Shown: positions 35,774 through 64,000 of the stretch, in pieces
How positions within the stretch are numbered: the first letter of the stretch is position 1
How the letters are laid out: each line of letters begins with the position of its first letter
Source: Fimicolochytrium jonesii
Taxonomy: Eukaryota
Reading direction: 5' to 3'
NCBI RefSeq assembly: GCF_025526975.1
Contig: NW_026515670.1
Coordinates: 248,001-312,000, forward strand
DNA: 64,000 bases
Program-made: the position numbers and the translations under genes
Notes under the pieces: model-generated
Database searches by the model: none
What the model was told of the DNA's origin: nothing
The model's input: only the letters and a program-made list of their open reading frames with translations

Positions 35774-35835
35774 TCACCCCTCTTTTTAGCGGCGGCGGCG
35801 GCGGCATCGAGTTTGGTGTGGCCGCAGAGGAGGTG

Positions 35836-40670: not shown

Positions 40671-40739
40671 GGCGAAAAAGGTTTGTTGGATGCAGGGCTG
40701 GACGGGTTCTGAACTTCGCAGTGTTGGAGCAGATCAAAC

Positions 40740-41274: not shown

Positions 41275-44200
41275 CCTACCTCAGCCATGATCGACAACGG
41301 TGCCCTGTCCTGCTTCATCGACAGAGACTTTGCCTGCAAACACCGCATCGCCCTAGTCCCGCATCAGCGTTCACTGACGATCGAACTCGTTGACGGTCAA
41401 CCCAGCTCTGCTGGGCCAATCACCCATCACACCCAACCAGTAGGCATGTGGGTCGACGACCACTTCAAAGAACTCGTCTTCCATGTCACCAAATCACCCC
41501 ATGCTCCAATCCTCCTTGGTCTCCCCTGGCTCCGCCTCCACGACATTAACCTTGACTTCAAGAACCTCTCGGTCTGTTTCCGTTGCGACTGTCAGTACCT
41601 TGAATTCGCGAATTGGGACAACTCTCCAGCACCCCCGAGCCCAGCACCTGCCAGAACCCCCGAGCCCTTGATCCGCATCCCCCCGGATGAAGTCCCCGTC
41701 AACGAAACACGGTCGATTCCAGTACCCAAGGTATCTCGCTCCAGCACCCCAGAACCGGCTCCCACGCCGCTCCGAGTCTCGTTCATCTCCGCCCCAGCCT
41801 TCCGGGTCGCAGCAAGGCATGACCAGGTCTTTGTCGCCTACGCCAACCCTGCGAAACCCGATCTCCCGGCCTTGCCTAGCCCCAGTAACCCCCCGACACC
41901 CGAGAAAGACATCAAAGACTTCCTGCCCCCCGAGTATCAAGACTTCGCCGACGTTTTTGAAAAGAGAAATGCTGACACTCTCCCCAAGCACCGGCCCTAC
42001 GACTGTCCAATCGATCTGGAAGAAGGCAAGCAGCCACCTTTCGGCCCGATCTACAGCCTCAGCGAACCAGAAATGAAGGCACTCTGCGAATACCTCGAAG
42101 AAAACCTCGCCAAAGGATTCATCAAACCCTCAAAGTCCCCTGCCGGTGCGCCAGTCTTATTCGTGAAGAAAAAGGAAGGTTCTCTCCGCCTCTGCGTCGA
42201 TTATCGAGGCCTGAACAGCATCACGGTGAAGAATCGCTACCCCCTGCCCCTGATCAACGGTATCATGGATTGTTTGCGCGGCGCCCGCCGTCTCACCAAG
42301 ATCGACCTCCGCGGCGCTTATAACCTCTTACGCATGCGCCCTGGCGATGAATGGAAGACCGCCTTCCGCTGCCGATACGGCCTATTCGAATACAATGTCA
42401 TGCCCTTTGGACTCAGCAATGCTCCTGGCGTCTTCCAGTACCTGATGAACGACATCCTCCTGCGACATTCTCGATGTGTTTGTTGTCGTCTACCTCGACG
42501 ATATCCTGATATTCTCCAAGAACCCCGAAGATCATCCCAAACATGTCCGCGAAGTCTTGTCCCGCCTCCGACAGCATGGGTTGTACGCCAACCCAGAGAA
42601 GTGCGAATTCAACCGCGAATCCGTTGAGTTCCTAGGCTTCATCATCTCCGAAGAAAGGCATCCAGATGGACCCCAAGAAGATCGCTGCCATCACGGATTG
42701 GGAACCTCCCAAGACTGTCAAAGGCGTCCAGCGGTTCCTCGGCTTTGCCAACTTCTATCGCCGATTCATCCAAGGTTATTCCAAGATCGCTACCCCGCTC
42801 ACAGCCCTGACCCGGAAAGACATCCCGTATGCCTGGACACCCGCCGCAAACACAGCCTTCGAGAACCTGAAGAAAGCATTCACCACCGCCCCCATCCTTG
42901 CTCACCCTGACCCAGAGAAGACCTTCGTCGTCGAAACTGGACGCCTCCGACTTCGCTCTTGGCGCAGTTCTCCTCCAACCTGACCAGGACAATCAGCTCC
43001 AACCCGTGGCCTTCCACTCTCGCAAATTCACGGCCGAAGAGATCAACTACGAGATCTACGACAAGGAACTTCTGGCCATCCAAGACTCCTTTGCCCAGTG
43101 GCAACACCATCTCATTGGCGCCCGTCACAAGATCACCGTTTACTCCGACCATAAAAACCTTCAGTACTTCATGACCACCCGCACCCTGAACCGCCGCCAA
43201 GCCCGCTGGTCGATATTCTTCTCGGATTTTGACTTTGTCATTACCTATCGCCCCGGTTCCCAGCAGCACCAAGCCAATGCCCTCTCCCGACGCTCCGAAC
43301 ATGAGCTAAAAAGGGGGAAGAAGCGTTCCGCTCCCAGGCAACCACAATTTTGACTCCCGAACGCCTTCGACTCGCCGCGGCCTACCTCACACCCATGGAT
43401 ACCACGCTGCTTGACAAGATTAAGGCCTGCCCAGGCCTCTGATCCCCTCGCTAAGACCATTCGCGAAAAGCTCAAGATACCCCTCGCCCAACGAACTGAG
43501 GAAACCCAAGATCGTATCAAGCGGTTCTCAGATGAAGATGGGATCCTGCTGCACGATAACCTGGTCTATGTCCCCACCAACGAGCTCCGAGCTGAAGTCT
43601 GCCACGACATGCACGATACACCCCTAGCCGGCCACTTTGGGATGTCCAAGACGCTCGAACTCGCCTCCCGCAACTACTGGTGGCCCAGCCAGTGGCGCTT
43701 CGTCAAGGCCTACGTCAAGTCCTGCGATACCTGTAGCCAAGCGAAATCCAGTTCGACACAAACCATTATGGCCTACTCCAGCCCAACAGTATCCCTACCC
43801 GCCCTTGGGGATCTTGGTCCCTGGACTTTATCACCGGTCTGCCTCCCGTGGACGGGTACGACTCCATCCTGAACGTCAACTGTTGCCTCACCAAGATGGC
43901 CCACTTCATCGCCTGCAGCGAGTCAGAATCCGCCGAATCCACCGCCGACCTAGTCTTCCACAACATCATCCGTCTCCACGGCCTCCCCGACGACGTCATC
44001 TCTGACCGAGGACCCCAGTTTAAGTCCCGGTTCTGGCGTCGACTTCTCGAACTCCTTGGGGCAAAAGCCAACCTCTCCTCGGCCTTCCACCCCCAGAGCG
44101 ATGGCCAGACGGAACGCACCAACCAGATCCTGGAGCAGTATCTCCGATGCTTTGCAACCACCAACAGGACAACTGGAAACAGCTTCTGTCGTCCGCCGAG

Positions 44201-45479
44201 TTCGCCTACAACAACACCCACCAGTCCGCCTCCCAGACCACCCCCTTCTACGCCAACAAGGGTCTCCACCCCCGCTTCAGTTTCGCGGCCTCTGCTACCT
44301 CCGAATCCGTCAACCCCGCCGCTGAAGCCCGCGCTAAACAAATCAGGGAAGTCCATGAACAGCTCGCCCTCGAGCTCAAGGAAGCCCAAGATCAAATGAA
44401 GCGCTACGCCGACGCTAAACGAATTCCTGGACCGGACTTCAAGCCTGGCGACCACGTCTGGCTCCTCCGCAAAAACCTCCAGACAACCCAGGCCCTCTCA
44501 GAAACTCGACCATCGCAAGATTGGGCCATTCCCCATCGTTGAAAAAATCAATCCCGTCGCCTACCGGCTCAAGCTCCCGCCTACGTACAAAATCCACGAT
44601 GTCTTCCATGTCTCGCTCCTCGAACCCCGCTTCACCATCCCCGAACGACACGAACCCGAACCCGCGCCCCCAGAGACCTGTTGAGGGTCAAGAAGAGTGG
44701 GTTGTCGAAGCCATCCTTCACTCTCGCATCCATTGTCGTCGCCTTCAGTACTTGGTCAAATGGCAGGGCTGGCCTGACTCCGAGAACACCTGGGAGCCCG
44801 TGGAACACCTCACCCGTACCGACGCACTCCTCCAGGATTCCACAGCGCGTACCCCAACAAGCCTTCCTCTGTTCCCGTAGCACCTCCTCTGCGGCCACAC
44901 CAAACTCGATGCCGCCGCCGCCGCCGCTAAAAGAGGGGTGATGTTATGGACGACGCGCCCATACCATAAGCTTACCTACTGACAGCCGCCAATGTCAACC
45001 GCCAAATGTCAAACGCCAATGTCAATGTCAATGTCAGTGTCAATGTCAGTGTCAATGTCAATGTCAATGCCACTCCCCCTCTCTCCTCTCATTTCGCCAA
45101 TCCTCTTGCAATATCGCCACTCCTCCTCTCTCCTCTCATTTCGCCAATCCCCCCTCGGCTTCTCCACACCCCCCACTGCTTCCCCATAGCCAGCAGCTGT
45201 AGCAATGCTCTCTACGCTCGCCACGCACGCTCTAGGAGCATAGCTGGCGCCCCCCAGTCCCCTCTTGTTGTTGTTGTTCTCTGATCTGCTGGGTTGCCTA
45301 TCTATAAATAGCCGGCCTCCCTTCGTCCATTCCCTTCCTCCCCAGCAGATCAACACCAGTTCTTCTCATCTCCTGTTCTAGTCCTTGTTTCTTGTTTCGC
45401 CAATACAATCTCTTGTCGCCTATCACACTCGCCCTGTCTTCTCTACTTCGCTTCTGCCCCCGTCGTCGAGATCATACCA
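41275..45479 (+). mobile_element. pol: Family A copy A2, 5'-truncated within protease; frameshifted pol plus 3' LTR (44942-45479)
   Basis: Near-identical reverse complement of the A1 pol. PPT AAAAGAGGGGTGA precedes TGTTATGG at 44942. Confidence 0.93.
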
Positions 45480-46043
45480 CCTACGATGAGCAACTCTCAG
45501 GCGGCTGCTAATACCGCTGTCAGCTATGCGATAGTTAACAATGACCGCTTAGAGCTTGACCCATTTGAACACCCGCATCGAAGGGCACAACGGCTCGACG
45601 GCGACCAACGCCAAGGCATCGGCCCCGCAGAGCGTAACCGCCCCTTGCACAGGCGCAGGGGGTCACCCCCATGGTCGCTACCTGGGAGGAGGCACTCCCG
45701 CTCACGCTCACCCCGTCGACGTCGAAGCCCAAACCCCCGACGCCGGAATCGGACGCCAGAGCGATACAGGCGCGGACGACAAGGTCGCAGGAGCATCTCC
45801 CGACCCCGTCGAAGGAGCCGCTTAGCAAGCCGCTACCGCAGCCGCTCCCCGGCGAGGACCCAAAGCCGCTCCCCCATGCGGCGCAGGAGCCGTACCCCAG
45901 CCCAACAGGAGAACGGACAGGCAACAATCCTCCAAAACCTACCACCCGCCGATGGCAACAACCCAGCGCTTGCACGGCCCGGTTACTCGAACCTCATACG
46001 GGCCCTCGCCACCGCCGTTTCTACCCAAAGCGCGCGGCCTTAA

Positions 46044-48765
46044 ATGAGGAGGGCTTCCTCACGGCCAAACCATTCAAGCGAGCAATCAAGAGGGATAAGA
46101 TCACCGAGGTCTATACCGCATGGGTCTCACGCACGGACACGGAGGTGGACCTGGCCACAGACGACGCCCTCACGGGTGTTGCCGAAGCCAAAGGGTAACT
46201 TCGTTTGCACGGGCGAGGCGAAGAACCGTGCGATCCTGGCGGACCGAAAGGCAATGGCCACCCCTCCGGATACCACCCCGGAGGATCCACTCGCATCGGT
46301 CGTCGCCAACCACCCTCTTCGCCCGACGTTGGAACAGTTTACAGATACCCTCTTCACCGAACAGAACGGCCTCCCGCCGGACCGCGGCGACGACAACTTC
46401 AGCATCAATCTGAAGCCCGGCTCCAAGCCTGTCATGCTCCCACTCTGCCACTTAGCCCCCGATGAACTCGACGAGTCACGGCAGCAACTCTAGCGCCTAT
46501 CATCCCGCGGGTGGATCTCCCCCTCTAAGAGCCCCTGGGGAGCACCCGCACTGTTTGCCCCGAAGAAGGACGGTGGGCTCCGCTGCTGCATCGACTACCA
46601 CGCCCTCAACAAGATGACCCATAAGGACGCCACGCCCCTCCCAAACCTCAACGAGCTTTGGGACCGCCTCGTCGGCATTAAGGGCTTCACCGCTATCGAC
46701 ATCCACGATGCCTACCACTGCATCCTCATTCGGGAGGAAGACCGTGAGAAGACTGCCTTCCAGACGCGCTTCGGCCACTTCCAGTACAACGTATTACCCT
46801 TCGGGCTGACGAACGCGCCCGCGACGTTCCAACGCCTCACGAACAAACTCCTGGGCAACAAGTACGATTCATACCTCATCTCTTACCTCGATGACATCCT
46901 TATTTTCAGCCCAGACATGGACTCACACATCGGGCATGTCACCAAAGTGCTCAAGACCCTCTCGGCTCACCGCCTCCACGTGAAACCGTCCAAATGTCAG
47001 TGGGCAGTGGACCGGGTCGAGTTCTGCGGGCACATGGTCGGTAAGGACGGCTTTTCCATCGCCCCGTCCAACGTTGAGGCTGTCCGCGCTCGACCCAAAC
47101 CCACCAGCGCCTTCGAGCTCCTCTCGTTCATGGGGCTAGTCAACTATGTCAAGGAATACATTCCGCATTATGCTGACACAGCCCTCCCACTGACCAACCT
47201 TCAATCCGGCACCCGCCCGTGGCAGTGGGGCGCCGAGGAACAAGCAGCATTCGACACCATCAAGGCGCGCGTCGCCGATGCCCCTTGCCTGGCATTCTTC
47301 GACCCCGATAAGTTCCCCTACGTCTTCTCTGACGCGTCGGGCATCGCCGTAGGGGGCTGGATTGGTCAGGGCATGGATGGCGACTTTCCCATGCCGAATC
47401 CACTGCCCACCACGAAAAAGGGCCTCAATAACCTTCCGCGCCTCCGCGTCATGTCATATTACTCACGCAAGATGGCTCCGGCCGAAATCCGATACCCCTT
47501 GCACAAACAGGCGCTCCTCGCATTGGTCAAAGTGATCCGCGCTAACCGCCACTACCTCATCGGTCGCCAATTCCGTGCATTTGTTGACCACGAATCCCTC
47601 ATATACCTCCAGAATCAGCCTCATCTCTCCCGGCGCCAGGCTGGATGGGTGGAGTTCCTTCAGGACTACGACTTCACCATCGAATACCTCCCCGGCGAGT
47701 TCAATCACATCGCCGACATACTCAGCCGCACCCCGCTGTACGCCCCGAAGTGCGCCAGCTGTCCGATGAAGGTCGAAGTGTTCTCCATTGTCACCGGGAC
47801 ACCTCTACCGGGCATCACCGACCGCCTCCCTACCGACACCGAGTGGCTCACTGTGCTCGACGATGACAAGTTCTGCAAGGACACCCTCGCCCACCTGCAG
47901 ACCACCGCGACGAACCCCGACGACCCCTCTACCCTCTCGGGTTTTGCCCGCCGCCTCACGCGCGACGACCGTGGCTTCCTTTTGTACCATGGCCGCCGCT
48001 ACGTCCCCGAGGGCCTTCGGGGCCCCCTTCTCAGGTTCTATCACGACTCCCTGGCCAACGGCGGCCACTTGGGTGTCCAGCGCACCGTCGCCAAACTCCT
48101 CGCGCTCTACTACTGGCCCCGCCTCAAGCGCGAGGTCCACCAGTACGTCCGGACTTGTCCCGACTGCCAACGCAACAAGCAGGCTTCCAACTTCGGGCTC
48201 CTACGCAGCATTCCGGTCCCCGGCGAGCGCTGGCGTTGCGTCGGCTTGGACATCTACTTCCCCACGACGACCTCTAAGGGGGGGGAAGCGGGAGACGAGT
48301 CCGTCATGGACAAGGGAGCTGTCCTCATCCTGGTGGACTACTTATCCAGCCGCGTAATCCTCCTCAAGACCCACGCCAAGGCGACGGCAAAGGAACTCGC
48401 CCAGCTGTTCTTCGACCAGGCCTTCCGCATCACGGGCATGCTCCACACGATCATCAGCGATCGGGACACCAAATGGACCGGCGCCTTTTGGAAGCACCTC
48501 CTGAAGTGCGCCGGCGTAGAGCAGGAACTCTCGTCGGCACGCCACCAACAGACCGACGGCAAGACGGAGAACGTCATCAAGACAATCAAGAAGATGATGG
48601 TCCCCTACCTCAACTACACCGGCTCCAACTGGCGCGAGATGCTTCCCCTCCTCGAGTACAACTACAACAGGACCCCCCAGGCCTCCACGGGCATGTCCCC
48701 GTACGAGATCGACATCGGGTACATCCCGAAGGTACCAGACCAATGGGGTACCGGCGACCCAACAT
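46044..48765 (+). pseudogene. pol: Family C pol (RT-RNase H-integrase core)
   Basis: SPWGAPALF, LPFGLTNAP, YLDD, SDASG, HHCC zinc finger, SDRD and HQQTDGKTE. In-frame TAG at 46491-46493. Confidence 0.9.
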
Positions 48766-49307
48766 TGTTATGAATGGGCGGAGCCGATGGAAATAGAGGC
48801 GACTTGTGGTGCAGGTTGTTGACAGGTAATGGTATTCAGACCGAAACAAGAACTAGAACAAGACTAGGAAGAACTGGTGTTGATCTGCTGGGGGATCAGG
48901 AAGTGGGGAGCTCAGGGGAGGCGGCTATTTATGTTTTTTCTGGGAAGGCTGGGGAAGCGTGGGGAAGCAGAAGGGTACGGAATGAGAGGGAAGCCAAGAG
49001 AAGCGCCAAGGGTGGGGAAGCATAGAAACAGAAGACTGGGGATGGGGTGGCTACGCTGAGGCTGTGGGCGGGTACGTGGGAAGTATGGAGAAGGGTTTGT
49101 AAGCGCCGAGTGTTGGGAGGTGTGGCTACGTGCGGCTGCGTGGAGAAATGAAGGCAGTGGCAGGTGTGGGGTAGCGCGGCTGCGTGCGGCTGCGAGGTTT
49201 GGCAGATGTCAGGTTTTGACAGGGAATTGACATTGACTGACTGTTGGGATGCTGTCATGAGGTAAGCGCATGGTATGGACGCGTCGTCCATAACATCACC
49301 CCCTCCT

Positions 49308-50460
49308 TTAGCCACGGCGTCCGGATGTTGTTTTGATGTTGGCAGGCTTTGGTCGGGGTTTGTCGGGGTACTTTTGGTGGAACTGGGCAACAAGCTCTTG
49401 ACATCGGGCAAGGTGTTCCACTGGCTCCCATGTGTTCTCCAAGCTTGGCCAACCCTGCCACTTGATGAGGTACTGAAGGTGCGTGCGTCGAATACGGGAG
49501 TCAAGAATGTCTTCCACAATCCATTCCTCCTGTCCTTCGACTTCTTCTGGTGGGGTGGGTTCTGGCTCAGTTCGCTCCGGAATGGTGAAACGTGGTTCAA
49601 GAAGGGAGACATGGAAGACGTTGTGAATTTTGTAGGATGGGGGAAGCTTGAGGCGATATGTGACCGAGTTGATCTTCTCCGTGATTGTGAAGGGGCCAAT
49701 CTTACAGTGATCAAGTTTCTGGGAAGGTCGGAGAGTCTTGAGATTCCGCTGTAAGAGCCAGACACTGTCCCCGGGTTTCATGTCTGGGCCAGGTGCCCTC
49801 TTAGCATCGGCAAAGTGCTTCATGCGTCCTTGGGCCTCCTTGAGCTCAGTGGCAAGCTGTTCATGGATTTCCTTGAGATGGTTGGCACGAGCTTCGGCTG
49901 CAGGATTAAGGGATTTGGTTGTGGTGGCGGAAGCCAGACTGAATCGAGGATGGAACCCATAGTTGGCGTAGAAGGGGGTTGTCTGGGTGGCGGAGTGGAT
50001 GGTGTTATTGTAAGAGAACTCAGCAGAAGACAAGAGTTCCTTCCAGTTATCTTGTTGATAGTTGCAAAAGCAGCGAAGGTATTGCTCAAGAATCTGATTG
50101 GTCCGCTCGGTTTGTCCATCGCTCTGGGGATGGAACGCCGATGAGAGGTTGACCTTGGTTCCCAGGAGAGCGAAGAGACGTTTCCAGAAGTGGGAGTTGA
50201 ACTGTGGGCCACGGTCAGATACAATATCGTCGGGGAGTCCATGGAGCCGGATGACATGGTGCCAGATCAGATCTGCAGTTGATTCAGCGGTGGCAGTTTT
50301 CCTGCACGGTACGAAGTGCGCCATCTTGGTGAACCGGCAGATGACAACAAGCACAGAACCAACCCCATCACTGGCGGGTAGATCCGTGATGAAGTCCATG
50401 GAAATTGACCCCCAGGGGCGGTCAGGGACCTGCAGGGGTTGGAGAAGACCGTAGGGCTTG
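49308..50460 (-). pseudogene. pol: Family B integrase core + chromodomain fragment, copy 1
   Basis: Motifs MDFITDLP, SDRGPQF, HPQSDGQTER, GPF and YLIKWQGW. Separated from the upstream pol by an LTR. Confidence 0.9.
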
Positions 50461-51105
50461 TGTTATGGACGACGCGTCCATACCATGCGCTTACCTCATG
50501 ACAGCATCCCAACAGTCAGTCAATGTCAATTCCCTGTCAAAACCTGACACCTGCCAAACCTCGCAGCCGCACGCAGCCGCGCTACCCCACACCTGCCACT
50601 GCCTTCATTTCTCCACGCAGCCGCACGTAGCCACACCTCCCAACACTCGGCGCTTACAAACCCTTCTCCATACTTCCCCACGTACCCGCCCACAGCCTCA
50701 GCGTAGCCACCCCATCCCCAGTCTTCTGTTTCCATACTTCCCCACGTACCCGCCCACGGCCTCAGCGTAGCCACCCCATCCCCAGTCTTCTGTTTCTATG
50801 CTTCCCCACCCTTGGCGCTTCTCTTGGCTTCCCTCTCATTCCGTACCCTTCTGCTTCCCCACGCTTCCCCAGCCTTCCCAGAAAAACATAAATAGCCGCC
50901 TCCCCTGAGCTCCCCACTTCCTGATCCCCCAGCAGATCAACACCAGTTCTTCCTAGTCTTGTTCTAGTTCTTGTTTCGATCTGAATACCATTACCTGTCA
51001 ACAATCTGCACCACAAGTCGCCTCTATTTCCATCGGCTCCGCCCATTCATAACAGTTTGATCTGCTCAACAACCCCCAGCCGCTGTACCTCCACGCCAAA
51101 TCACC

Positions 51106-52032
51106 ATGTCCGACGCCCTTCCCCTCACGGCCGAAGCCTGGCAAGCCATGTGCAATGCGATTGACGAACTTCGAGCGCAGAATACCACCCTACAAGCCGA
51201 ACTAGCGCAAACCCAGACCACTGCCCCTGCCACCCACGCCCCCGAACCCAAAATCAGTCTCCCAGACAAATTTGATGGCACCCGAAGCAAGTTCCGTGGG
51301 TTACTCAACCAGATCCGGCTCATGTTCGCCCTCCAACCCAGGCGCTACCCCAACGATCAGACCAAGATACAAACTATTGGCACCTACCTCACTGGCACTG
51401 CCCAGGCCTGGCTGGCGCCCCTTGTCAAACAAGACCATCATTCCCTTACAAACCTGGATGATTTCATCCAGCAAATGCAAGCAGTCTTTGGAGACAGCGA
51501 CAGGATCCGCACATCCGAAAACAAGCTCCAGAACCTTCGACAAACCCGTGCAGCAACAGAGTATGTAGCTGAATTCCGACAGCTGCAATGCGATGTGTCG
51601 TGGAATGACCAGGCATTGATTGCCACCTTCCGTCGCGGCCTCAAAGAAGACGTCAAGGACTTAATGCTCACGATGCCCCCTACCGCCTCAATCGACACCG
51701 TGATGGAACAGGCCATCCAATGTGACAACCGATTGTTTGAGCGCCGTCTAGAGCGAAGCAGGAACCGACAGCCATATGTGCCAGTTACCACTAGCCCCAC
51801 CCTCATGAGCCCCGACAACCGCCCAGACGACCCTATGATCATTGACGCTGCTCGTCCGCGAGGACCCCTCACACCGCTAGAGCGCCAACACCGCATCACA
51901 AACAAACTTTGCGTCTACTGTGGTAAACCCGGCCACATAGCCAAACTCTGCCCGAACAAGATACGCACGGCGAATGTCGCGGTTAAGGAACCTGCACCCA
52001 TCCAGGATTTTGCCCAAGTCCAGCTGCAGTAA
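51106..52032 (+). CDS. gag: Family B Gag, intact
   Basis: Motifs PDKFDG, PMIID and CVYCGKPGHIAKLC. Confidence 0.92.
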   Translation: MSDALPLTAEAWQAMCNAIDELRAQNTTLQAELAQTQTTAPATHAPEPKISLPDKFDGTRSKFRGLLNQIRLMFALQPRRYPNDQTKIQTIGTYLTGTAQAWLAPLVKQDHHSLTNLDDFIQQMQAVFGDSDRIRTSENKLQNLRQTRAATEYVAEFRQLQCDVSWNDQALIATFRRGLKEDVKDLMLTMPPTASIDTVMEQAIQCDNRLFERRLERSRNRQPYVPVTTSPTLMSPDNRPDDPMIIDAARPRGPLTPLERQHRITNKLCVYCGKPGHIAKLCPNKIRTANVAVKEPAPIQDFAQVQLQ

Positions 52033-54711
52033 AGGCCGAGCAGCTGGGCAACACCTGTCCTGGGCCTTCTCACCACGCAAGTACTGCCAAGGGAGAAGCC
52101 ACAAAACCTTGCTCCGATCCTGGCATCTCCAGCAACACCCTTCTCCTGACCACCAACAATGTCAATCTCCTATCTGAGATACCCTCACCCATGCGGACTT
52201 TGGGCCCATCCTCACCATTCGAGTACCCTGTTACCCTGCAGATATTGGCCCAGCGAGCTCCAGTTCAGCTTTCAGCACTACTCGACACCGGTGCGATGTC
52301 GTGCTTCATCGACGAAAGTTATGCCCGCAAGCACCGCATCCCACTTGTCAAGAAGGAGGACCCCATTGCGCTAGAACTGGTTGACGGACGTCCCAGCCAT
52401 GCGGGCTCCATTACCCATCACACCCAACCTTTGGGCATGTGGGTCAACGACCACTTTGAGGAGGTGGTATTCCATGTGACATGTTCCCCGCATGCGCCAA
52501 TCATCCTGGGGCTTCCCTGGTTTGAGCTCCATGATGTGGAGCTACACTGGAAGACTCGCACTCTTTGCGTCCGCTGCCATTGCGGTTTTGGACAATACGC
52601 CTCCTGGGATGCCCTGCCAACAGAACCTAGCCCGAAGCCCTCAAGAACCCCTGAACCTCTGATCCGTATCCATCAAGACGAGATTTCAGTCTCCCTAGCC
52701 CAGACACCCAACACACTGGACCCAGCACCCACACCGATCCACGTATCGTTTATCAGCGCCCCAGCTTTCCGTGTGGCGGCAAGGCATGACCAGGCATTCA
52801 TTGCCTACGCCAATCCGACCAAGTCAGATTCCCAAGCCCTGGCGACCACTCCTCCAAAAGATCCGAAGGCCATCATTCCTGAAGAATACCAAGATTTTGC
52901 GGACGTCTTCGCCAAGAAGAACGCGGATACCCTCCCAGAGCACCGACCCTACAACTGTCCCATCGACTTAGAAGAGGGCAAACAGCCACCGTTCGGCCCG
53001 ATCTATAGTCTCAGCGAGCCTGAAATGCAGGCACTCTGTGACTACCTTGAAGAGAACCTAGCTAAGGGGTTCATCAAGCACTCCAAGTCTCCCGCCGGTG
53101 CCCCAGTCCTCTTTGTCAAGAAAAAGGACGGTTCCCTCCGTCTGTGCGTCGACTATCGTGGACTCAACAAAATCACCATCAAGAATCGCTATCCCTTGCC
53201 CTTGATTAACAGCATCATGGATCGTCTTCGAGGGGCACGTCGGCTCACCAAGATTGACCTCCGGGGAGCCTACAACCTTCTTCGGATCCGGCCAGGGGAT
53301 GAATGGAAGACAGCGTTCCGATGTCGCTACGGCCTATTCGAGTATAATGTCATGCCGTTTGGGCTCACCAATGCCCCTGGAGTATTCCAACACCTCATGA
53401 ACGACATATTCCGTGACATTCTCGACGTTTTTGTTGTGGTCTACCTTGACGACATTCTGATCTTCTCAAAAAACCCAGAAGACCACCCCAACCACGTCCG
53501 AGAGGTGCTCTCACGACTCCGCCAGCACGGGCTGTATGCGAAACCGGAAAAATGCGAATTCAACCGTGACTCTGTTGAGTTCCTGGGGTTTATCATCTCC
53601 CAGCAAGGCATTTCCATGGACCCAAAGAAGACGGCTGCCATTACCGAATGGGAACCCCCAACGAATGTCAAAGGCATCCAGCGCTTCCTTGGTTTTGCCA
53701 ACTTCTACCGGCGATTCATCAAAGGGTACTCTGCGATCGTTGCACCCCTGACCACGCTCACTCGCAAAGACTTGCCATTCAAATGGACCCACGCTGCACA
53801 CCTAGCTTTTGAAACCCTCAAGAAAGCCTTCACCTCCGCACCTATCTTGACTCACCCCGACCCTGACAAGCCCTTCATTGTCGAATCCGATGCCTCCGAC
53901 TTTGCCCTTGGCGCCGTCCTCCTTCAACCCGATGACACAGATCAACTCCACCCCGTGGCCTTTCACTCCCGCAAATTTACTCCTGAGGAAATCAACTATG
54001 AGATCTATGACAAGGAACTCCTGGCTATCCAAGACTCATTTGCTCAATGGCGACACCACCTCATTGGTGCCCGCCACAAGGTCATCATTTACTGTGACCA
54101 CAAGAACCTCCAGTACTTCATGACTACCCGTACCCTCAACCGCCGCCAATCCCGCTGGTCAATCTTCTTTGCTGATTTCGACTTTGTCATCACATACCGC
54201 CCTGGTACCCAGCAACACCAAGCTGACGCCCTCTCTCGTCGCTCTGAATACGAGCTAAGGGAGGGGGAAGAAGCATTCCGCTCCCAGGAAACCACGATCC
54301 TCACCCCTGACCATCTCCGCCTGGCCGCCACTTATCTGACCCCACTGGACTCCTCGCTCCTTGACCAAATCAAAGCTGCCCTGGCATCCGATGTGTTTGC
54401 GCAAACCATCCGGCGACAGCTTAGGGCCCCCATTGCCCAGCAATCTCAAGAAGACCAAGAACGGATAAAGCGATTCTCCGAGGAAAATGGGGTTCTGCTG
54501 TACGACAACCTTGTCTACGTCCCCACCAACAAGCTCCGTGCTGAGATCTGCCGGGACATGCATGACACGCGTTTGGCAGGACACTACGGCATGTCAAAGA
54601 CCCTGGAGCTCATCTCACGCAACTACTGGTGGCCTAGCCAGTGGCGTTTTGTCAAGTCCTACATCAGGTCCTGCGACGTATGTGCTCAAGTCAAGACCAG
54701 CAGACACAAGC
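52005..54711 (+). CDS. pol: Family B Pol (PR-RT-RH-IN zinc finger), open frame truncated by an LTR
   Basis: LLDTGA, YLDD, SDASD and H..H..C..C. The frame is open from 51987, is -1 relative to gag, and is cut at 54712. Confidence 0.92.
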
Positions 54712-55253
54712 TGTTATGAATGGGCGGAGCCGATGGAAGTAGAGGCGACTTGTGGTGCAGATTGTTGACAGGTAATGGTATTCAGATCGAAACAAGAACT
54801 AGAACAAGACTAGGAAGAACTGGTGTTGATCTGCTGGGGGATCAGGAAGTGGGGAGCTCAGGGGAGGCGGCTATTTATGTTTTTTCTGGGAAGGCTGGGG
54901 AAGCGTGGGGAAGCAGAAGGGTACGGAATGAGAGGGAAGCCAAGAGAAGCGCCAAGGGTGGGGAAGCATAGAAACAGAAGACTGGGGATGGGGTGGCTAC
55001 GCTGAGGCTGTGGGCGGGTACGTGGGAAGTATGGAGAAGGGTTTGTAAGCGCCGAGTGTTGGGAGGTGTGGCTACGTGCGGCTGCGTGGAGAAATGAAGG
55101 CAGTGGCAGGTGTGGGGTAGCGCGGCTGCGTGCGGCTGCGAGGTTTGGCAGATGTCAGGTTTTGACAGGGAATTGACATTGACTGACTGTTGGGATGCTG
55201 TCATGAGGTAAGCGCATGGTATGGACGCGTCGTCCATAACATCACCCCCTCCT

Positions 55254-56406
55254 TTAGCCACGGCGTCCGGATGTTGTTTTGATGTTGGCAGGCTTTGGTC
55301 GGGGTTTGTCGGGGTACTTTTGGTGGAACTGGGCAACAAGCTCTTGACATCGGGCAAGGTGTTCCACTGGCTCCCATGTGTTCTCCAAGCTTGGCCAACC
55401 CTGCCACTTGATGAGGTACTGAAGGTGCATGCGTCGAATACGGGAGTCAAGAATGTCTTCCACAATCCATTCCTCCTGTCCTTCGACTTCTTCTGGTGGG
55501 GTGGGTTCTGGCTCAGTTCGCTCCGGAATGGTGAAACGTGGTTCAAGAAGGGAGACATGGAAGACGTTGTGAATTTTGTAGGATGGGGGAAGCTTGAGGC
55601 GATATGTGACCGAGTTGATCTTCTCCGTGATTGTGAAGGGGCCAATCTTACAGTGATCAAGTTTCTGGGAAGGTCGGAGAGTCTTGAGATTCCGCTGTAA
55701 GAGCCAGACACTGTCCCCGGGTTTCATGTCTGGGCCAGGTGCCCTCTTAGCATCGGCAAAGTGCTTCATGCGTCCTTGGGCCTCCTTGAGCTCAGTGGCA
55801 AGCTGTTCATGGATTTCCTTGAGATGGTTGGCACGAGCTTCGGCTGCAGGATTAAGGGATTTGGTTGTGGTGGCGGAAGCCAGACTGAATCGAGGATGGA
55901 ACCCATAGTTGGCGTAGAAGGGGGTTGTCTGGGTGGCGGAGTGGATGGTGTTATTGTAAGAGAACTCAGCAGAAGACAAGAGTTCCTTCCAGTTATCTTG
56001 TTGATAGTTGCAAAAGCAGCGAAGGTATTGCTCAAGAATCTGATTGGTCCGCTCGGTTTGTCCATCGCTCTGGGGATGGAACGCCGATGAGAGGTTGACC
56101 TTGGTTCCCAGGAGAGCGAAGAGACGTTTCCAGAAGTGGGAGTTGAACTGTGGGCCACGGTCAGATACAATATCGTCGGGGAGTCCATGGAGCCGGATGA
56201 CATGGTGCCAGATCAGATCTGCAGTTGATTCAGCGGTGGCAGTTTTCCTGCACGGTACGAAGTGCGCCATCTTGGTGAACCGGCAGATGACAACAAGCAC
56301 AGAACCAACCCCATCACTGGCGGGTAGATCCGTGATGAAGTCCATGGAAATTGACCCCCAGGGGCGGTCAGGGACCTGCAGGGGTTGGAGAAGACCGTAG
56401 GGCTTG
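55254..56406 (-). pseudogene. pol: Family B integrase core + chromodomain fragment, copy 2
   Basis: Near-identical direct repeat of 49308-50460, offset 5946 bp. Confidence 0.9.
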
Positions 56407-57000
56407 TGTTATGGACGACGCGTCCATACCATGCGCTTACCTCATGACAGCATCGCAACAGTCAGTCAATGTCAATTCCCTGTCAAAACCTGACACCTGC
56501 CAAACCTCGCAGCCGCACGCAGCCGTGCTACCCCACACCTGCCACTGCCTTCATTTCTCCACGCAGCCGCACGTAGCCACACCTCCCAACACTCGGCGCT
56601 TACAAACCCTTCTCCATACTTCCCCACGTACCCGCCCACAGCCTCAGCGTAGCCACCCCATCCCCAGTCTTCTGTTTCCATACTTCCCCACGTACCCGCC
56701 CACGGCCTCAGCGTAGCCACCCCATCCCCAGTCTTCTGTTTCTATGCTTCCCCACCCTTGGCGCTTCTCTTGGCTTCCCTCTCATTCCGTACCCTTCTGC
56801 TTCCCCACGCTTCCCCAGCCTTCCCAGAAAAACATAAATAGCCGCCTCCCCTGAGCTCCCCACTTCCTGATCCCCCAGCAGATCAACACCAGTTCTTCCT
56901 AGTCTTGTTCTAGTTCTTGTTTCGATCTGAATACCATTACCTGTCAACAATCTGCACCACAAGTCGCCTCTACTTCCATCGGCTCCGCCCATTCATAACA
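56407..57000 (+). repeat. Solo LTR of family B inserted antisense into family B integrase
   Basis: TSD GCTTG at 56402-56406 and 57001-57005. Confidence 0.93.
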
Positions 57001-60000
57001 GCTTGTGTCTGCTGGTCTTGGCTTGAGCACATACGTCGCAGGACCTGATGTAGGACTTGACAAAACGCCACTGGCTAGGCCACCAGTAGTTGCGTGAGAT
57101 GAGCTCCAGGGTCTTTGACATGCCGTAGTGTCCTGCCAAACGCGTGTCATGCATGTCCCGGCAGATCTCAGCACGGAGCTTGTTGGTGGGGACGTAGACA
57201 AGGTTGTCGTACAGCAGAACCCCATTTTCCTCGGAGAATCGCTTTATCCGTTCTTGGTCTTCTTGAGATTGTTGGGCAATGGGGGCCCTAAGCTGTCGCC
57301 GGATGGTTTGCGCAAACACATCGGATGCCAGGGCAGCTTTGATTTGGTCAAGGAGCAAGGAGTCCAGTGGGGTCAGATAAGTGGCGGCCAGGCGGAGATG
57401 GTCAGGGGTGAGGATCGTGGTTTCCTGGGAGCGGAATGCTTCTTCCCCCTCCCTTAGCTCGTATTCAGAGCGACGAGAGAGGGCGTCAGCTTGGTGTTGC
57501 TGGGTACCAGGGCGGTATGTGATGACAAAGTCGAAATCAGCAAAGAAGATTGACCAGCGGGATTGGCGGCGGTTGAGGGTACGGGTAGTCATGAAGTACT
57601 GGAGGTTCTTGTGGTCACAGTAAACGATGACCTTGTGGCGGGCACCAATGAGGTGGTGTCGCCCTTGAGCAAATGAGTCTTGGATAGCCAGGAGTTCCTT
57701 GTCGTAGATCTCATAGTTGATTTCCTCAGGAGTAAATTTGCGGGAGTGAAAGGCCACGGGGTGGAGTTGATCTGTGTCATCGGGTTGAAGGAGGACGGCG
57801 CCAAGGGCAAAGTCGGAGGCATCGGATTCGACAATGAAGGGCTTGTCAGGGTCGGGGTGAATCAGGATAGGTGCGGAGGTGAAGGCTTTCTTGAGGGTTT
57901 CAAAAGCTAGGTGTGCAGCGTGGGTCCATTTGAATGGCAAGTCTTTGCGAGTGAGCGTGGTCAGGGGTGCAACGATCGCAGAGTACCCTTTGATGAATCG
58001 CCGGTAGAAGTTGGCAAAACCAAGGAAGTGCTGGATGCCTTTGACATTCGTCGGGGGTTCCCATTCGGTAATGGCAGCCGTCTTCTTTGGGTCCATGGAA
58101 ATGCCTTGCTGGGAGATGATAAACCCCAGGAACTCAACAGAGTCACGGTTGAATTCGCATTTTTCTGGTTTCGCATACAGCCCGTGCTGGCGGAGTCGTG
58201 AGAGCACCTCTCGGACGTGGTTGGGGTGGTCTTCTGGGTTTTTTGAGAAGATCAGAATGTCGTCAAGGTAGACCACAACAAAAACGTCGAGAATGTCACG
58301 GAATATGTCGTTCATGAGGTGTTGGAATACTCCAGGGGCATTGGTGAGCCCAAACGGCATGACATTATACTCGAATAGGCCGTAGCGACATCGGAACGCT
58401 GTCTTCCATTCATCCCCTGGCCGGATCCAAAGAAGGTTGTAGGCTCCCCGGAGGTCAATCTTGGTGAGCCGGCGTGCCCCTCGAAGACGATCCATGATGC
58501 TGTTAATCAAGGGCAAGGGATAGCGATTCTTGATGGTGATATTGTTGAGTCCACGATAGTCGACGCACAGACGGAGGGAACCGTCCTTTTTCTTGACAAA
58601 GAGGACTGGGGCACCGGCGGGAGACTTGGAGTGCTTGATGAACCCCTTAGCTAGGTTCTCTTCAAGGTAGTCACAGAGTGCCTGCATTTCAGGCTTGCTG
58701 AGACTATAGATCGGGCCGAACGGTGGCTGTTTGCCCTCTTCTAAGTCGATGGGACAGTCGTAGGGTCGGTGCTCTGGGAGGGTATCCGCGTTCTTCTTGG
58801 CGAAGACGTCCGCAAAATCTTGGTATTCTTCAGGAATGATGGCCTTCGGATCTTTTGGAGGAGTGGTCGCCAGGGCTTGGGAATCTGACTTGGTCGGATT
58901 GGCGTAGGCAATGAATGCCTGGTCATGCCTTGCCGCCACACGGAAAGCTGGGGCGCTCATAAACGATACGTGGATCGGTGTGGGTGCTGGGTCCAGTGTG
59001 TTGGGTGTCTGGGCTAGGGAGACTGAAATCTCGTCTTGATGGATACGGATCAGAGGTTCAGGGGTTTTGAGGGCTTCGGGCTAGGTTCTGTTGGCAGGGC
59101 ATCCCAGGAGGCGTATTGTCCAAAACCGCAATGGCAGCGGACGCAAAGAGTGCGAGTCTTCCAGTGTAGCTCCACATCATGGAGCTCAAACCAGGGAAGC
59201 CCCAGGATGATTGGCGCATGCGGGGAACATGTCACATGGAATAGCACCTCCTCAAAATGGTCGTTGACCCACATGCCCAAAGGTTGGGTGTGATGGGTAA
59301 TGGAGCCCGCATGGCTGGGACGTCCGTCAACCAGTTCAAGCGCAATGGGGTCCTCCTTCTTGACAAGTGGGATGCGGTGCTTGCGGGCATAACTTTCGTC
59401 GATGAAGCACGACATCGCACCGGTGTCAAGTAGTGCTGAAAGCTGAACTGGAGCTCGCTGGGCCGATATCTGCAGGGTAACAGGGTACTCGAATGGTGAG
59501 GATGGGCCCAAAGTCCGCATGGGTGAGGGTATCTCAGATAGGAGATTGACATTGTTGGTGGTCAGGAGAAGGGTGTTGCTGGAGATGCCAGGATCGGAGC
59601 AAGGTTTTGTGGCTTCTCCCTTGGCAGTACTTGCGTGGTGAGAAGGCCCAGGACAGGTGTTGCCCAGCTGCTCAGCCTTTACTGCAGCTGGACTTGGGCA
59701 AAATCCTGGATGGGTGCAGGTTCCTTAACCGCGACATTCGCCGTGCGTATCTTGTTCGGGCAGAGTTTGGCTATGTGGCCGGGTTTACCACAGTAGAGGC
59801 AAAGTTTGTTTGTGATGCGGTGTTGGCGCTCTAGCGGTGTGAGGGGTCCTCGCGGACGAGCAGCGTCAATGATCATAGGGTCGTCTGGGCGGTTGTCGGG
59901 GCTCATGAGGGTGGGGCTAGTGGTAACTGGCACATATGGCTGTCGGTTCCTGCTTTGCTCTAGACGGCGCTCAAACAATCGGGTGTCACATTGGATGGCC

Positions 60001-60606
60001 TGTTCCATCACGGTGTCGATTGAGGCGGTAGGGGGCCATCGTGAGCATTAAGTCCTTGACGTCTTCTTTGAGGCCGCGACGGAAGGTGGCAATCAATGCC
60101 TGGTCATTCCACGACACATCGCATTGCAGCTGTCGGAATTCAGCTACATACTCTGTTGCTGCACGGGTTTGTCGAAGGTTCTGGAGCTTGTTTTCGGGTG
60201 TGCGGGTCCTGTCGCTGTCTCCAAAGACTGCTTGCATTTGCTGGATGAAATCATCCAGGTTTGTAAGGGAATGATGGTCTTGTTTGACAAGGGGCGCCAG
60301 CCAGGCCTGGGCAGTGCCAGTGAGGTAGGTGCCAATAGTTTGTATCTTGGTCTGATCGTTGGGGTAGCGCCTGGGTTGGAGGGCGAACATGAGCCGGATC
60401 TGGTTGAGTAACCCACGGAACTTGCTTCGGGTGCCATCAAATTTGTCTGGGAGACTGATTTTGGGTTCGGGGGCGTGGGTGGCAGGGGCAGTGGTCTGGG
60501 TTTGCGCTAGTTCGGCTTGTAGGGTGGTATTCTGCGCTCGAAGTTCGTCAATCGCATTGCACATGGCTTGCCAGGCTTCGGCCGTGAGGGGAAGGGCGTC
60601 GGACAT
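57001..60606 (-). pseudogene. Family B gag-pol, inverted copy with frameshifts near 60030 and 59065
   Basis: Reverse complement of 51106-54711 with scattered substitutions. Confidence 0.92.
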
Positions 60607-60678
60607 GGTGATTTGGCGTGGAGGTACAGCGGCTGGGGGTTGTTGAGCAGATCAAACAGCGTCGTCCATACCAAACAT

Positions 60679-61335
60679 AGCAACTGAAACAGGCCGATCG
60701 AAAGTGCATTGAGGAGCGCATGCAGCAACTGACCGAGGTGAGCCGCATCGTTCAGCACAGACTCCGAGAGGCCCAGGACAGGCAGGCAAGATACTACGAC
60801 AGGAACAAGAATACGGACGCGTTCGTAGTAGGCGACCAGGTCCTGCTGAACCGCAAAGGCATCCAGATCAAGAGTATCTCGGCCCGAAACAAGAAGCTGT
60901 CCGCGCTATGGATCGGGCCCTTCACCGGCAGCGGAAAAGGGCCCCACCCAGACACCTACGAGCTGGAGCTCTCCCACGAGTTCAGTGGACTACACCCGGT
61001 GTTCCACGTCAACATCCTACGCAGGTACAACCCTCCGGAGAACGGCCCATACCAAAAAGTGGACGCGCCACCCCCCCCCAGAGGAAGTCAACGGCAAACT
61101 CGAACACCGAGTTGAAGACATCCTCGACTCCAAGTGGGTACGCAACACCGAGATGTTCCTGGTCAAATGGGCCGGCTACGATGTGTCCCAGAACACCTGG
61201 GAGCCACTCCGACACGTCCGTGACACCTCGGCCCACAAGCGATATGTCCGAAAGCAAGCCGCCAAGCGCCAGGACAGTCGGGAGACCAAGGCAAAGGAGA
61301 GAGCGGCAGTCTCCCGTCGCTGTAAACGTATCTGA
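60679..61335 (+). pseudogene. pol: Family C integrase C-terminus + chromodomain
   Basis: AQDRQARYYD, WIGPF, HPVFHV and VEDILD..FLVKWAGYD..NTWEP. Frameshift in a C-run near 61070-61079. Confidence 0.88.
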
Positions 61336-61398
61336 ACCTTGTACATACATCAAAACAGAGTTTCTAATGTCCAAAATGATCATTACCATTACGGACTC

Positions 61399-61617
61399 AT
61401 GCGGGCGGGTACTAATACCGAGGCCTATGATGCGGGCGGGTACATAGTACCAGGGCCTATGATGCGGGCGGGTACGTAGTACCAGGGCCTATGATGCGGG
61501 CGGGTACGAGGTACCAGGGCCTATGCGAGCGGGCAAGCAAGGTGTCAGGGCTCATGCGGGCGGGTATGCAATACCAAGGCCTAGGATGCAAGCGGGTGCG
61601 AGGCACCAGGGCTCAGG
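61399..61617 (+). repeat. About 7 degenerate tandem copies of a ~32-bp unit (ATGATGCGGGCGGGTACRTAGTACCAGGGCCT)
   Basis: Visible head-to-tail array without spacers, in the 3' UTR of element C. Confidence 0.9.
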
Positions 61618-61703
61618 ACGATCGGTGAAGTACCAAAGGGAAACGCTCCGAGGATATCAAATTCAACAAAATATATACAAGAAAGAAGAACGATGACGCC
61701 AGG

Positions 61704-62462
61704 CTAAATACCAGCCTGTTTGGCGAAAGACCATTGGCAACGTGAGCCGTGGCAGGCGGTCCCCATGCCACAACCCAGCGGGACGAACTGCTGGAAGTTC
61801 ATCTGGCTAGAGGGAGCACGTCACGTCAGTGGCGGGACCTGTCGAAAACTCACGAGTGTTGTACTTATGCGCGGACATGCCTCATACACTGGATGTGGTT
61901 GCAGGGGAAGACCCGCACGTCCTCGGCCAGACAATCGCAGTCGGGCCACACACAGGTGCAGGGTAGCGCCTGGCAGAAGAGCGGCACTTCACACTCCTCC
62001 CCGAAACCGTCCACGTAGCCGCACGTGGACTCCCCGATGGGCGTGTCGGTCTGTCGGGAAGAGACGTGAGCTGTCAGTCACCCCATGGGAACCACCCATG
62101 ACATGCGGTTCCTTACGGTGTCATCACAGAGCGGGAGGATGCAAGGCCGGCATATAACGTGCTGGCACGCCAAGAGGAACATCTTGCGGGGACGGTACGT
62201 GTTGCAGTTCCAACACGTAGGTCGGGCCGGTGGAGCCGGAGGCTCCGGGGTACTGTCCGTGTGCACCTCGGGGGTGTCCTGAGATAGAATCGGTCAAACC
62301 ACGTAAGTTGGGTCAATTGGGCAACCTCCGTGGACTCACCGCTCGCTGTCGCTTGAGACCCTTCTTCAGGCTGTCCCCTGTGGTGGGACCCTCGCCTACT
62401 TTCTTCTTACCCGATGACGGGCCGGCGGCAGTGGGCTTGGCAGAAGGAGCTACGCTGGCCAC
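61704..62462 (-). CDS. Antisense spliced accessory gene in element C: tandem RING-like Cys/His protein (about 189 aa; may be decayed)
   Basis: Exons 62462-62340, 62278-62117, 62050-61869 and 61806-61704 join in frame. Motifs CWNC-x12-CQHVICRPC and CVWPDC-x11-CNHIQCMRH. Start is GTG; the third donor reads ATAAGT. Confidence 0.7.
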
Positions 62463-62562
62463 AGTGAAGAGGGGAACGGCGACGGTGAGAGGTTACGAGA
62501 TTGGGGGCAAGAAATGTAAGTCTGGGGACTGGCGGGAAGGTGCCGAGGGGAGTACTGCCTTC

Positions 62563-62570
62563 CTTTTATA
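62563..62570 (-). promoter_or_regulatory. TATA box (TATAAAAG) for the antisense RING-like gene
   Basis: Consensus TATA about 100 bp upstream of exon 1, followed by a pyrimidine-rich leader. Confidence 0.55.
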
Positions 62571-62804
62571 TGCCGCAGGGACAAGGACCATAGCGCCCCA
62601 CGACCAGCTGCGGCCAAATCATCTCTACCTCATATCGGCGTGGATCTGATTGCCATCGTGGTGACGACCGGTGACGCCAGCCGCTCCAGTAGAGCCATGC
62701 GCACTCCTCATGGCCGACACCCGTGTCAGCTCCACATCAAGTAACAGCGGGGAGCGACTGACAGGTGCGGTCGGTGTCGGAGTGACACTTGGCTCTAAGG
62801 GGGG

Positions 62805-63023
62805 TGTAATGAGGTGCTGCAGGTGTCACCTTAGTGCGGGGAAGCGCGTAGGGCATGAGATCACGTGTAGCGTAGATTATATTGGGGTTCTACGCTCTGG
62901 GGTGACTCCCAAAGGGAAGAAAAGCCTTCGGGCGGCGCCCCGGGAGGTAGAAACTCTAGAATTCTTTCAATACATCGAGCAGAGACAGAGCTAGCCTCTG
63001 GCAACGGACCTAGCATTATTACA
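62805..63023 (+). repeat. Probable 3' LTR of family C (219 bp)
   Basis: Begins TGTAAT directly after the purine tract AAGGGGGG and ends ATTACA (6-bp terminal inverted repeat). No partner LTR in the window. Confidence 0.7.
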
Positions 63024-64000
63024 AGGTCGGTTGAGAACCAAAGGAGGAACCCGAGGTTTAGTCATAGGTCAAAAGTTACCCATGACGTGTTTTCAGGAGA
63101 AAAACGTTAAGAATGTCAGGTGCAGATCCAAAGAAAAACATTCAATCGCGCGTGATGACAAAATCAAAGCGACTGGCATTTTCTATAATTGGGGGTGTAG
63201 CCACCAGCAGAAGTCGCCGGCCTGCCTGCCCATCTGAAGAAGTACGGAAATTGACAGCAGCTGGTCGTTGACTTCTGGGTTGCACACGGAGGCTTGGCGA
63301 ACCCGTCGTACCCGGACTATTGGCCACCTACTGTATACAAGTCTCGCCGATGCCCTTCTTGGCCGCCGTCGCTCGCATCCCCGGCCCTTTGCCTTCCTTG
63401 CCCGAAAGCGTGCACCCTCCGATGCACGTCAAGTCTAGTCAAGAACGCGTGCGCTCATAAACGCGTTTTGCGCAGTGGGATCTCCGATCGCGCCGACTGA
63501 CAGAAGGAAGGGGTCCTAGGACTTTCGCCAACTTGTCCCAGGAACGCTGTTCGTCGCATTTTCAACCTTCGTCTGCAAGAATGCTGCGGAATATCCACCT
63601 TCTGAGTGAGATACCCAGATATCAGCCGCACTTCACTCCCCCAGGGTCTCAAAATTATCGTCGTGCCATCTCATCATATAAGAACACCGCGGTTTTAGAC
63701 CCTCACAAACACATTCATCACCACTGCGACACCCAGAGCTGAAGCAATACATAGAACTCGAAAGTAAAAGGATGTCATTCATCCCCGACCCCGAAACAAT
63801 CCCTTCAGTTTCCTACCTCCCCTTCCGCTCCGATATGGCGCGGTACATGGTCGCCGAGATTCGTAACATCGGTACGGATAAACTGTTGGTTTCCATTCCC
63901 CGACATACTATGCGTCTGACGCAAATCATGTTTCTCCCCATGATTCACTAGCGGCAGGCCTAGCAACAACCGGCCTAGCCTCCCACGCCGACAAGATAGA

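Follow-up and report, generated by a model that had tools for sequence, protein, structure and literature searches.

Long terminal repeat (LTR) retrotransposons may carry an extra open reading frame (ORF) antisense to their own genes, between pol and the 3' LTR. Such frames (aORF-3R) have been described in Grande, RIRE2, Retand, PvRetro13 and the Botrytis element Boty (PMC7264820), and examples include brtn of Boty/BcGypsy1 (cited in PMC8365987), gene23 of maize Grande, that of rice RIRE2 and TRP28 of Retand (PMC7264820, PMC11963269, PMC8365987). The available text of two reviews calls the origin of these frames unknown, with no similarity to other transposons or viruses, and leaves their function open as well (PMC7264820, PMC11963269); one of the two urges that spliced antisense transcripts be looked for (PMC7264820). 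The planarian giant Gypsy element Burro/GYPSM1 has domains related to the RING finger (AIR1) and to ubiquitination (MATH/TRAF, BIR), for which interference with the host has been proposed (PMC6431247), and orchid Gypsy elements have captured an AlkB ORF (PMC9289625). The words "antisense" and "RING" are absent from the available part of PMC3248453. Here we describe a gene in a 64,000-nt stretch of the genome of the chytrid Fimicolochytrium jonesii (contig NW_026515670.1, positions 248,001 to 312,000; hereafter the window, with coordinates counted from its first letter). This four-exon gene encodes two predicted RING-like units, and probably lies inside a chromovirus, element C, in the same antisense slot.

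The gene is read from the minus strand, and splicing of its four exons gives a product of 189 residues. Its parts, in the direction of transcription, are:

62563..62570, minus strand: TATA-like box, about 108 nt above the start and outside the LTR, followed by a CT-rich leader
62340..62462, minus strand: exon 1 (123 nt, 41 codons), with a basic bipartite stretch resembling a nuclear localization signal
62279..62339, minus strand: intron 1 (61 nt, phase 0, GTGAGT..CAG)
62117..62278, minus strand: exon 2 (162 nt), with the predicted ligands 1–6 of RING-like unit A
62051..62116, minus strand: intron 2 (66 nt, phase 0, GTAAGG..CAG), with an in-frame TGA inside
61869..62050, minus strand: exon 3 (182 nt), with the last two predicted ligands of unit A and the first six of unit B
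61807..61868, minus strand: intron 3 (62 nt, phase 2), with a non-canonical AT donor, a CTGAC branch and a TAG acceptor
61704..61806, minus strand: exon 4 (103 nt), with the predicted final ligand pair of unit B (C168-x5-C174) and a TAG stop
61672..61677, minus strand: TATATA in a U-rich stretch just past the stop, a possible 3'-end signal if, as we presume, its role in yeast applies here

A first-pass annotation of the window had proposed these exons, introns and intron ends, and splicing gave the same 189 residues. The TATA box it had placed on the minus strand proved to be the sole TATAAA on either strand of 61336–62804, the 1469 nt between the end of pol and the polypurine tract (PPT) of the element; it lies at 62570 and probably acts as the gene's own promoter. 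The two RING-like cores were likewise borne out: CxHxxCxx[CH] occurs at just two places in the six frames of the whole window, both inside the antisense gene, and among 3000 dinucleotide shuffles of the 1469-nt region one such core arose in 24 and two in none. It had been held that exon 2 alone was visible among the ORFs, which was incorrect, the stop-to-stop list containing both exon 2 and exon 3. GTG takes the place of the start codon, flanked by A at -3 and G at +4. A search of Rfam gave no match.

The introns resemble those of the host, whose GT-AG introns measure 60–79 nt. A strict pattern (GTRAG[TG], 52–80 nt in length, YTRAC branch, YAG), which corresponds to the general fungal consensus but was composed after the introns had been seen, picks out introns 1 and 2; two matches were reached in 5 of 2000 shuffles. 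Intron 3 fails the pattern because its donor is AT. The same pattern found only two matches in about 26 kb of gag and pol of the window's Ty3/Gypsy elements A, B and C (both strands), both of them in B, and none on the sense strand of the antisense-gene region. The reading frame is open through all four exons, with GC contents of 0.59, 0.55 and 0.76 at codon positions 1, 2 and 3, compared with 0.59, 0.43 and 0.80 in the pol gene of C and with third-position values of 0.64–0.73 in three host ORFs. The spliced four-exon antisense gene is real, and the unit is complete, with promoter-like, splice and 3'-end-like signals all present.

A relative of this gene is recorded from a different class of mobile element. 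With exon 3 as the query, phmmer returned two matches among 1.84 billion representative proteins. One, a Rib-repeat surface protein, was dropped as a chance match. The other is a true relative (E 1.7e-5), DAC81638.1, annotated as "oncoid" of Powellomyces chytrid fungus MELD virus 1; it is a protein of 197 residues, annotated without splicing, on the 21,205-nt record of a Polinton-like double-stranded DNA (dsDNA) virus. The similarity extends to exon 2, which lay outside the query: 27 of 54 residues are identical there, a score reached by none of 1000 shuffles, and 26 of 61 in exon 3 (pairwise tblastn of exons 2–3, E 3.5e-30, identity 43–50%). Exons 1 and 4 have no similarity to DAC81638.1 in the pairwise comparison. 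The conservation of Cys and His residues that the first-pass annotation had proposed to check was found: all 14 testable zinc ligands predicted in exons 2 and 3 are kept in the homolog, compared with none of the four other cysteines. Selection has therefore acted on the zinc sites.

The homolog also appears to break at the three places where our gene is spliced, as far as splice sites can be deduced from protein letters alone. At the place of intron 2 it has an exactly positioned insert of 25 residues, with V (GTN) first and Q (CAR) last. At intron 1 a stretch of 25 residues starts with V-S (encodable by GTRAGY) and closes with Q, immediately ahead of the residue that aligns with the first of exon 2; its donor was picked by analogy, making it the weakest of the three break points. 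No branch-point motif is encodable 8–30 nt before the second acceptor. Finally, the last four residues of exon 3 are also those with which the viral ORF closes, where a phase-2 GTRA donor gives an in-frame stop, and exon 4 is not in the annotation, which stops at donor 3. The viral ORF thus appears to be an unspliced reading of the same gene, running through two introns and stopping at the third. This also revises one detail of the first-pass annotation, which had attributed the in-frame TAA at donor 3 to a G>A change; a phase-2 GTAA donor yields TAA in frame either way, so the stop is not due to that change, and the homolog stops there too. The proposed start position was upheld: in the homolog, Met and 39 residues, with 7 K/R, precede the break of intron 1, compared with 41 codons from the GTG here. 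An in-frame ATG at 62591 was rejected as an alternative start, given an intervening stop, its overlap with the TATA box and the exon 1 length of the homolog, which fits the GTG. Taken together, the gene, the splice model including the AT-donor intron and the selection on zinc sites are well supported.

We found no annotated cellular relative with phmmer or with word-based protein searches, the latter in a collection that includes chytrid proteins. The word-based searches yielded no relative among 18 candidates of 75–240 residues or in the one candidate at 108–2000 residues; since they missed the 197-residue homolog, their sensitivity is low. Viral contigs and phage records held no relative of the antisense gene or of the homolog. 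A match from a metagenome scan (L001) was discarded, being short, in another frame and over a bacterial hydrolase-like ORF. Oncoids are defined by an LxCxE Rb-binding motif near paired CxxC (PMC8502044, available text). The name does not fit here, because neither protein contains LxCxE or LxCxD. The words "RING" and "splic" are absent from the searchable main text of the MELD paper, as are "Powellomyces" and "DAC81638" from the searchable part of its supplement (PMC8502044), and the available text of the paper and its preprint does not discuss this ORF or its splicing (PMC8502044, 10.1101/697771). One Powellomyces MELD accession is named in the available part of 10.1101/2023.10.16.562556.

Splicing completes two eight-ligand units, 12 residues apart. 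Unit A reads C63-x2-C66-x12-C79-x-H81-x2-C84-x2-C87-x17-C105-x9-C115, and unit B C128-x4-C133-x11-C145-x-H147-x2-C150-x2-H153-x14-C168-x5-C174. The classical C3HC4 RING pattern is C-x2-C-x(9-39)-C-x(1-3)-H-x(2-3)-C-x2-C-x(4-48)-C-x2-C. Ligands 1–7 of unit A fit it, with x9 between ligands 7 and 8 (x4 in the homolog); unit B departs from it in the x4 of its first spacing, in His as ligand 6 and in the x5 of its last spacing. RING proteins make up eight of ten weak sequence matches in the PDB, and the nearest Atlas clusters of the homolog, taken as a lead only, are mostly C3HC4 RINGs (score 0.87–0.89). Structure models, made from sequences other than the full spliced product, were of low confidence (mean predicted local distance difference test score 53 and 36). 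Fold searches from these models gave no match at E 0.001, and their weak lists, rich in RING and RBR proteins, are not counted as evidence. No duplication origin of the two units is detectable, the score between A and B being reached by 120 of 2000 shuffles. The protein is not an RBR ligase, because it has two units only and unit B has the RING-type C-x-H-x2-C spacing and not that of IBR. The ligand pattern supports two RING-like zinc-binding units.

Element C is a chromovirus (Ty3/Gypsy), with a C-terminal chromodomain following reverse transcriptase (RT), RNase H and integrase. The features that place the gene within it are:

45935..48765, plus strand: 5' part of the pol gene of C (RT, RNase H, integrase)
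60679..61335, plus strand: integrase C-terminus, SH3 and chromodomain of C, with a frameshift near 61075
61399..61612, no strand assigned: array of 32-nt tandem repeats, with four good copies to 61525 and degenerate copies to about 61612
62797..62804, plus strand: PPT (AAGGGGGG)
62805..63023, plus strand: probable 3' LTR of C (219 nt, TGTAAT...ATTACA, 6-bp inverted end), adjoining the PPT

The pol gene resumes at 60679 past a nested block of family B, which is flanked by an AACAT duplication (48761–48765 and 60674–60678), and four related proteins align over the join in tblastn. RVT_1, RT_RNaseH, Integrase_H2C2, SH3_Tf2-1 and Chromo all score above their Pfam cut-offs in C. In the tree, C falls in a fully supported clade with two Powellomyces hirtus proteins and one metagenome protein (71–73% identity in RT-RNase H), outside of which lies family B (40%). 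Further scans for relatives of C gave only distant elements (L002–L004, 21–26% identity). Two of these, L003:1399-6848 and L004:2-1255, are Gypsy-type pol sequences on contigs of two bacterial metagenome-assembled genomes, L003 also with a long third ORF; both contigs are likely eukaryotic contamination. The antisense gene lies downstream of pol and upstream of the PPT, provided that 62805–63023 is the LTR, and the array, with its repeated GCGGGCGGGTAC core, lies between the converging ends of the two genes.

A diverged copy was seen in an unrelated straw metagenome run (DNA, 5% of words; depth-2 contigs of read length), referred to as X1. It was the one run listed, with no RNA run beside it, which has no bearing on expression. 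Six of its 151-nt contigs match at about 95%, three on the integrase/chromodomain segment (396 of 657 nt covered), one on the array and two on the gene (302 of 759 nt). There is a 1-nt deletion within intron 2; in the exons, L77S is a change towards the residue of the viral protein and D139E a change away, and no conserved ligand is hit. Exon 1, the LTR, the right flank (63024–64000) and most of 29000–33600 are without cover, while the pol regions of A and C are covered; holes between such contigs prove nothing, and we did not use them as copy-number evidence. One X1 contig has a different arrangement of array units beyond 61612.

We suggest, as an explanation to which we give about an even chance, that a chytrid chromovirus carries a four-exon gene, likely placed backwards between its chromodomain and its 3' LTR, that encodes a predicted nuclear factor engaging the host ubiquitin machinery. 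Transcription would start at the gene's own TATA promoter, within the internal region of the element, run towards pol and stop near the tandem array. Retrotransposons are known to copy antisense introns rather than remove them. Here the introns would outlast retrotransposition by being carried in reverse in the genomic RNA of the element, and would be copied, not removed, because in that orientation the spliceosome cannot read them. Template switching or recombination between DNAs would have brought the gene into the element, introns included. The simplest donor would be a DNA element; a MELD virus, for one, infects the same fungal lineage and would naturally keep introns. The protein would then go to the nucleus and bind a host ubiquitin-conjugating enzyme (E2) or RING partner, redirecting the ubiquitination of a silencing or restriction factor.

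A number of observations weigh against this explanation. The units might belong to a zinc-finger regulator that binds DNA or protein and has no ubiquitination role, comparable to the antisense nuclear proteins that have been suggested in Grande and Retand, with the array as a possible target; we regard this as unlikely. Contact with an E2 classically involves a hydrophobic residue before ligand 2, Pro after ligand 7 and a basic linchpin after ligand 8. In unit A these positions hold N, G (not P) and E (not R/K), in unit B D, G and H, and the homolog is similar in its unit A (K, G, G), although a hydrophobic helix (I88, L91) is present. The His at the sixth ligand and the x4 first spacing of unit B, together with the basic N-terminus of both proteins, would also suit a regulator, as would the plant precedents, which are nuclear or predicted DNA binders according to the available text (PMC7264820, PMC11963269). 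Exon 2 matches six Pfam RING families (E 1e-4 to 0.06), all under the curated cut-offs, the best being zf-RING_5 (E 1.1e-4, 22.6 bits, cut-off 27.9); a further scan reached 18.3 of 21 bits. Exon 3, with unit B, matches no Pfam RING family. Because exons were scanned singly, with ligands 7–8 outside the query, the RING scores are half-domain scores. Against the regulator, all family-level signals below E 0.1 are RING-type, and RING domains are typically modules of the ubiquitin pathway. Some role in that pathway seems to us fairly likely, while activity as a stand-alone ubiquitin ligase (E3) is rather doubtful; the lack of most classical E2-contact residues makes a role as adaptor or in a heterodimer no less likely. 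A different alternative concerns the sharing with a virus: the gene might be an accessory of family-C chromoviruses only, with the "oncoid" ORF part of a whole or fragmentary C-like retrotransposon that is inserted in the 21-kb MELD record. The identity of 43–50% in the exons is close to the 43–46% between the integrases of C and of the Powellomyces elements, as also expected of descent within one LTR lineage, and the closest named relatives of C are elements of P. hirtus (72–73% in RT-RNase H), the genus behind the virus record. In the available parts of the MELD paper, supplementary maps have RT labels on other contigs and the legend of Fig. 5 mentions Gag/retropepsin in an unnamed element (PMC8502044). 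On the other hand, the ORF of DAC81638.1 is annotated as a virus gene, oncoids typically lie upstream of PolB in that paper, and the legends of its Figs. 5 and 6, taken as legends only, have no RT label (PMC8502044). We hold this alternative, the main rival, to be improbable on balance. The relative recorded from a Polinton-like virus has the same three break points, and unrelated mobile elements therefore likely share the gene.

The remaining points concern the state and the position of this copy. Both the start (GTG) and one donor (AT) are non-canonical, so that the first-pass annotation was right in calling the copy decayed, and it is likely dead. It might be a passenger, a MELD-virus or unseen host gene that was captured by one sub-lineage of C and has been decaying since, its ligands having been conserved before capture. 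The five exon differences listed for X1 are all non-synonymous, compared with five of eight in the integrase/chromodomain segment, although depth 2 cannot measure selection; no X1 contig bridges pol and the gene, and no second linked copy was seen. Decay is, however, expected, because pol of the same copy is broken too, with frameshifts near 46150 and 61075 and two stops, at 46491 and at the junction. The frame is moreover open over four exons, none of the promoter, leader and 3' signals of a complete unit is lacking, and a diverged copy exists in the unrelated sample, which makes a mere passenger a poor candidate. Nor does it seem at all probable that the gene is outside C, as a neighbouring host or endogenous-virus gene beside a truncated element whose LTR is not 62805–63023. 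This would accord with the heavy rearrangement of the region, with the interval between integrase and LTR (1469 nt in C, only 62 nt in A and 12 nt in B) and with the lack in the window of a second copy of 62805–63023 and of a 5' LTR, primer-binding site or gag of C; the loose LTR signature (PPT plus inverted end) has 50 matches in 128 kb. Only four of these start with TGT[AT]AT, however, and the remaining three are ends of LTRs in A and B that occur in repeated copies. No further LTR-like end or junction was found past the chromodomain, no terminal repeat or duplication bounds a nested insert in 61336–62804, and the 977 nt beyond 63023 hold short ORFs only, with no Pfam match in the three scanned. 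The early proposal of a gene inside C with its 3' LTR at 62805–63023 is thus supported, short of proof, by the PPT, the LTR hallmarks of the TG..CA repeat and the lack of another boundary. We consider the location inside C probable, and lean towards a gene carried by the C family and not by one copy alone.

Going beyond the preferred explanation of an antisense nuclear factor in C, one may speculate that a spliced tandem-RING family, restricted to chytrid mobile elements, has passed between an LTR retrotransposon and a Polinton-like virus without losing its introns. In the antisense slot, a retroelement would be able to acquire and keep intron-bearing virus genes, and both carriers would redirect host ubiquitination against silencing. 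This wider proposal is tentative, and we think it unlikely as a whole. If true, it would give a traceable origin to an antisense extra ORF of the kind that reviews call of unknown origin. The gene of C already has a clear relative in the record of another class of mobile element, with three intron positions in common, and its recognisable domain type suggests a direct assay. Such genes get missed because they are both spliced and antisense, as the public "oncoid" annotation appears to illustrate, and other ORFs of fungal MELD viruses may also be spliced. Whether shared between virus and retrotransposon or a lineage-wide retrotransposon gene, it would be a conserved and testable accessory gene.

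Beyond 35.2 kb the window consists of nested Ty3/Gypsy elements. A (35233–45480) and B (48766–60673) form large inverted duplications, 97–99% identical and joined at their LTRs, and the 5' half of C is missing; this arrangement has the look of an inversion or deletion mediated by LTRs, unless it is an assembly artefact. In every copy of A and B the integrase frame is split from RT-RNase H just past the zinc-binding domain, at about the same place, which may be a shared frameshift or junction:

50462–50463 and 56408–56409: integrase frame splits in B
about 36957 and about 43737: integrase frame splits in A

Left of the nest, ORFs on the minus strand at 32772–35237 are truncated at 35237 by element A. 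One of them, of 410 residues, groups with unnamed fungal and algal clusters (0.95) and weakly with Plavaka/DUF6830 clusters, with no Pfam match; the segment is possibly a DNA transposon invaded by retroelements. At 15114–15659 on the plus strand lies a short remnant like the C-terminus of a retroelement integrase, overlapping the 5' end of an opposite-strand gene that we take to be ubiquitin-conjugating-enzyme-like.

Compared with the described systems, the gene of C is closest in protein to DAC81638.1, with 43–50% identity in exons 2–3, 14 of 14 testable ligands, three break points and a basic N-terminus of the same length, and differs from it in that the latter is one unspliced ORF of 197 residues from a dsDNA Polinton-like virus, not a retroelement. 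The predicted units have the eight-ligand spacing, the C-x-H-x2-C core and weak profile matches of RING-type E3s (C3HC4 PF00097, PF14634; RBR RING1), but score under the cut-offs, have His at ligand 6 of unit B and mostly lack the E2-contact residues. In Burro/GYPSM1 the related domains, in the available account, are parts of either a huge polyprotein or an accessory ORF located upstream, rather than of a separate spliced antisense gene. A literature search, which covered few subscription papers, returned no report of an LTR element with a spliced RING gene in antisense, or of such a gene being shared with a Polinton-like virus. Slot and orientation are those of the aORF-3R frames; in the text available, gene23 of Grande has a promoter of its own upstream and its product is nuclear, and tandem arrays are frequent in this region of Retand (PMC11963269, available part). 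The aORF-3R cases are defined by their family-wide presence, whereas the gene of C is known from one readable element copy; none is described with RING domains in the parts available, whereas the gene of C, in addition, is interrupted by three introns and is related to a protein on the record of a DNA virus. Extra antisense genes at this position were known before, and what is new, within the literature searched, is the tandem-RING payload and the intron-conserving link to a DNA virus.

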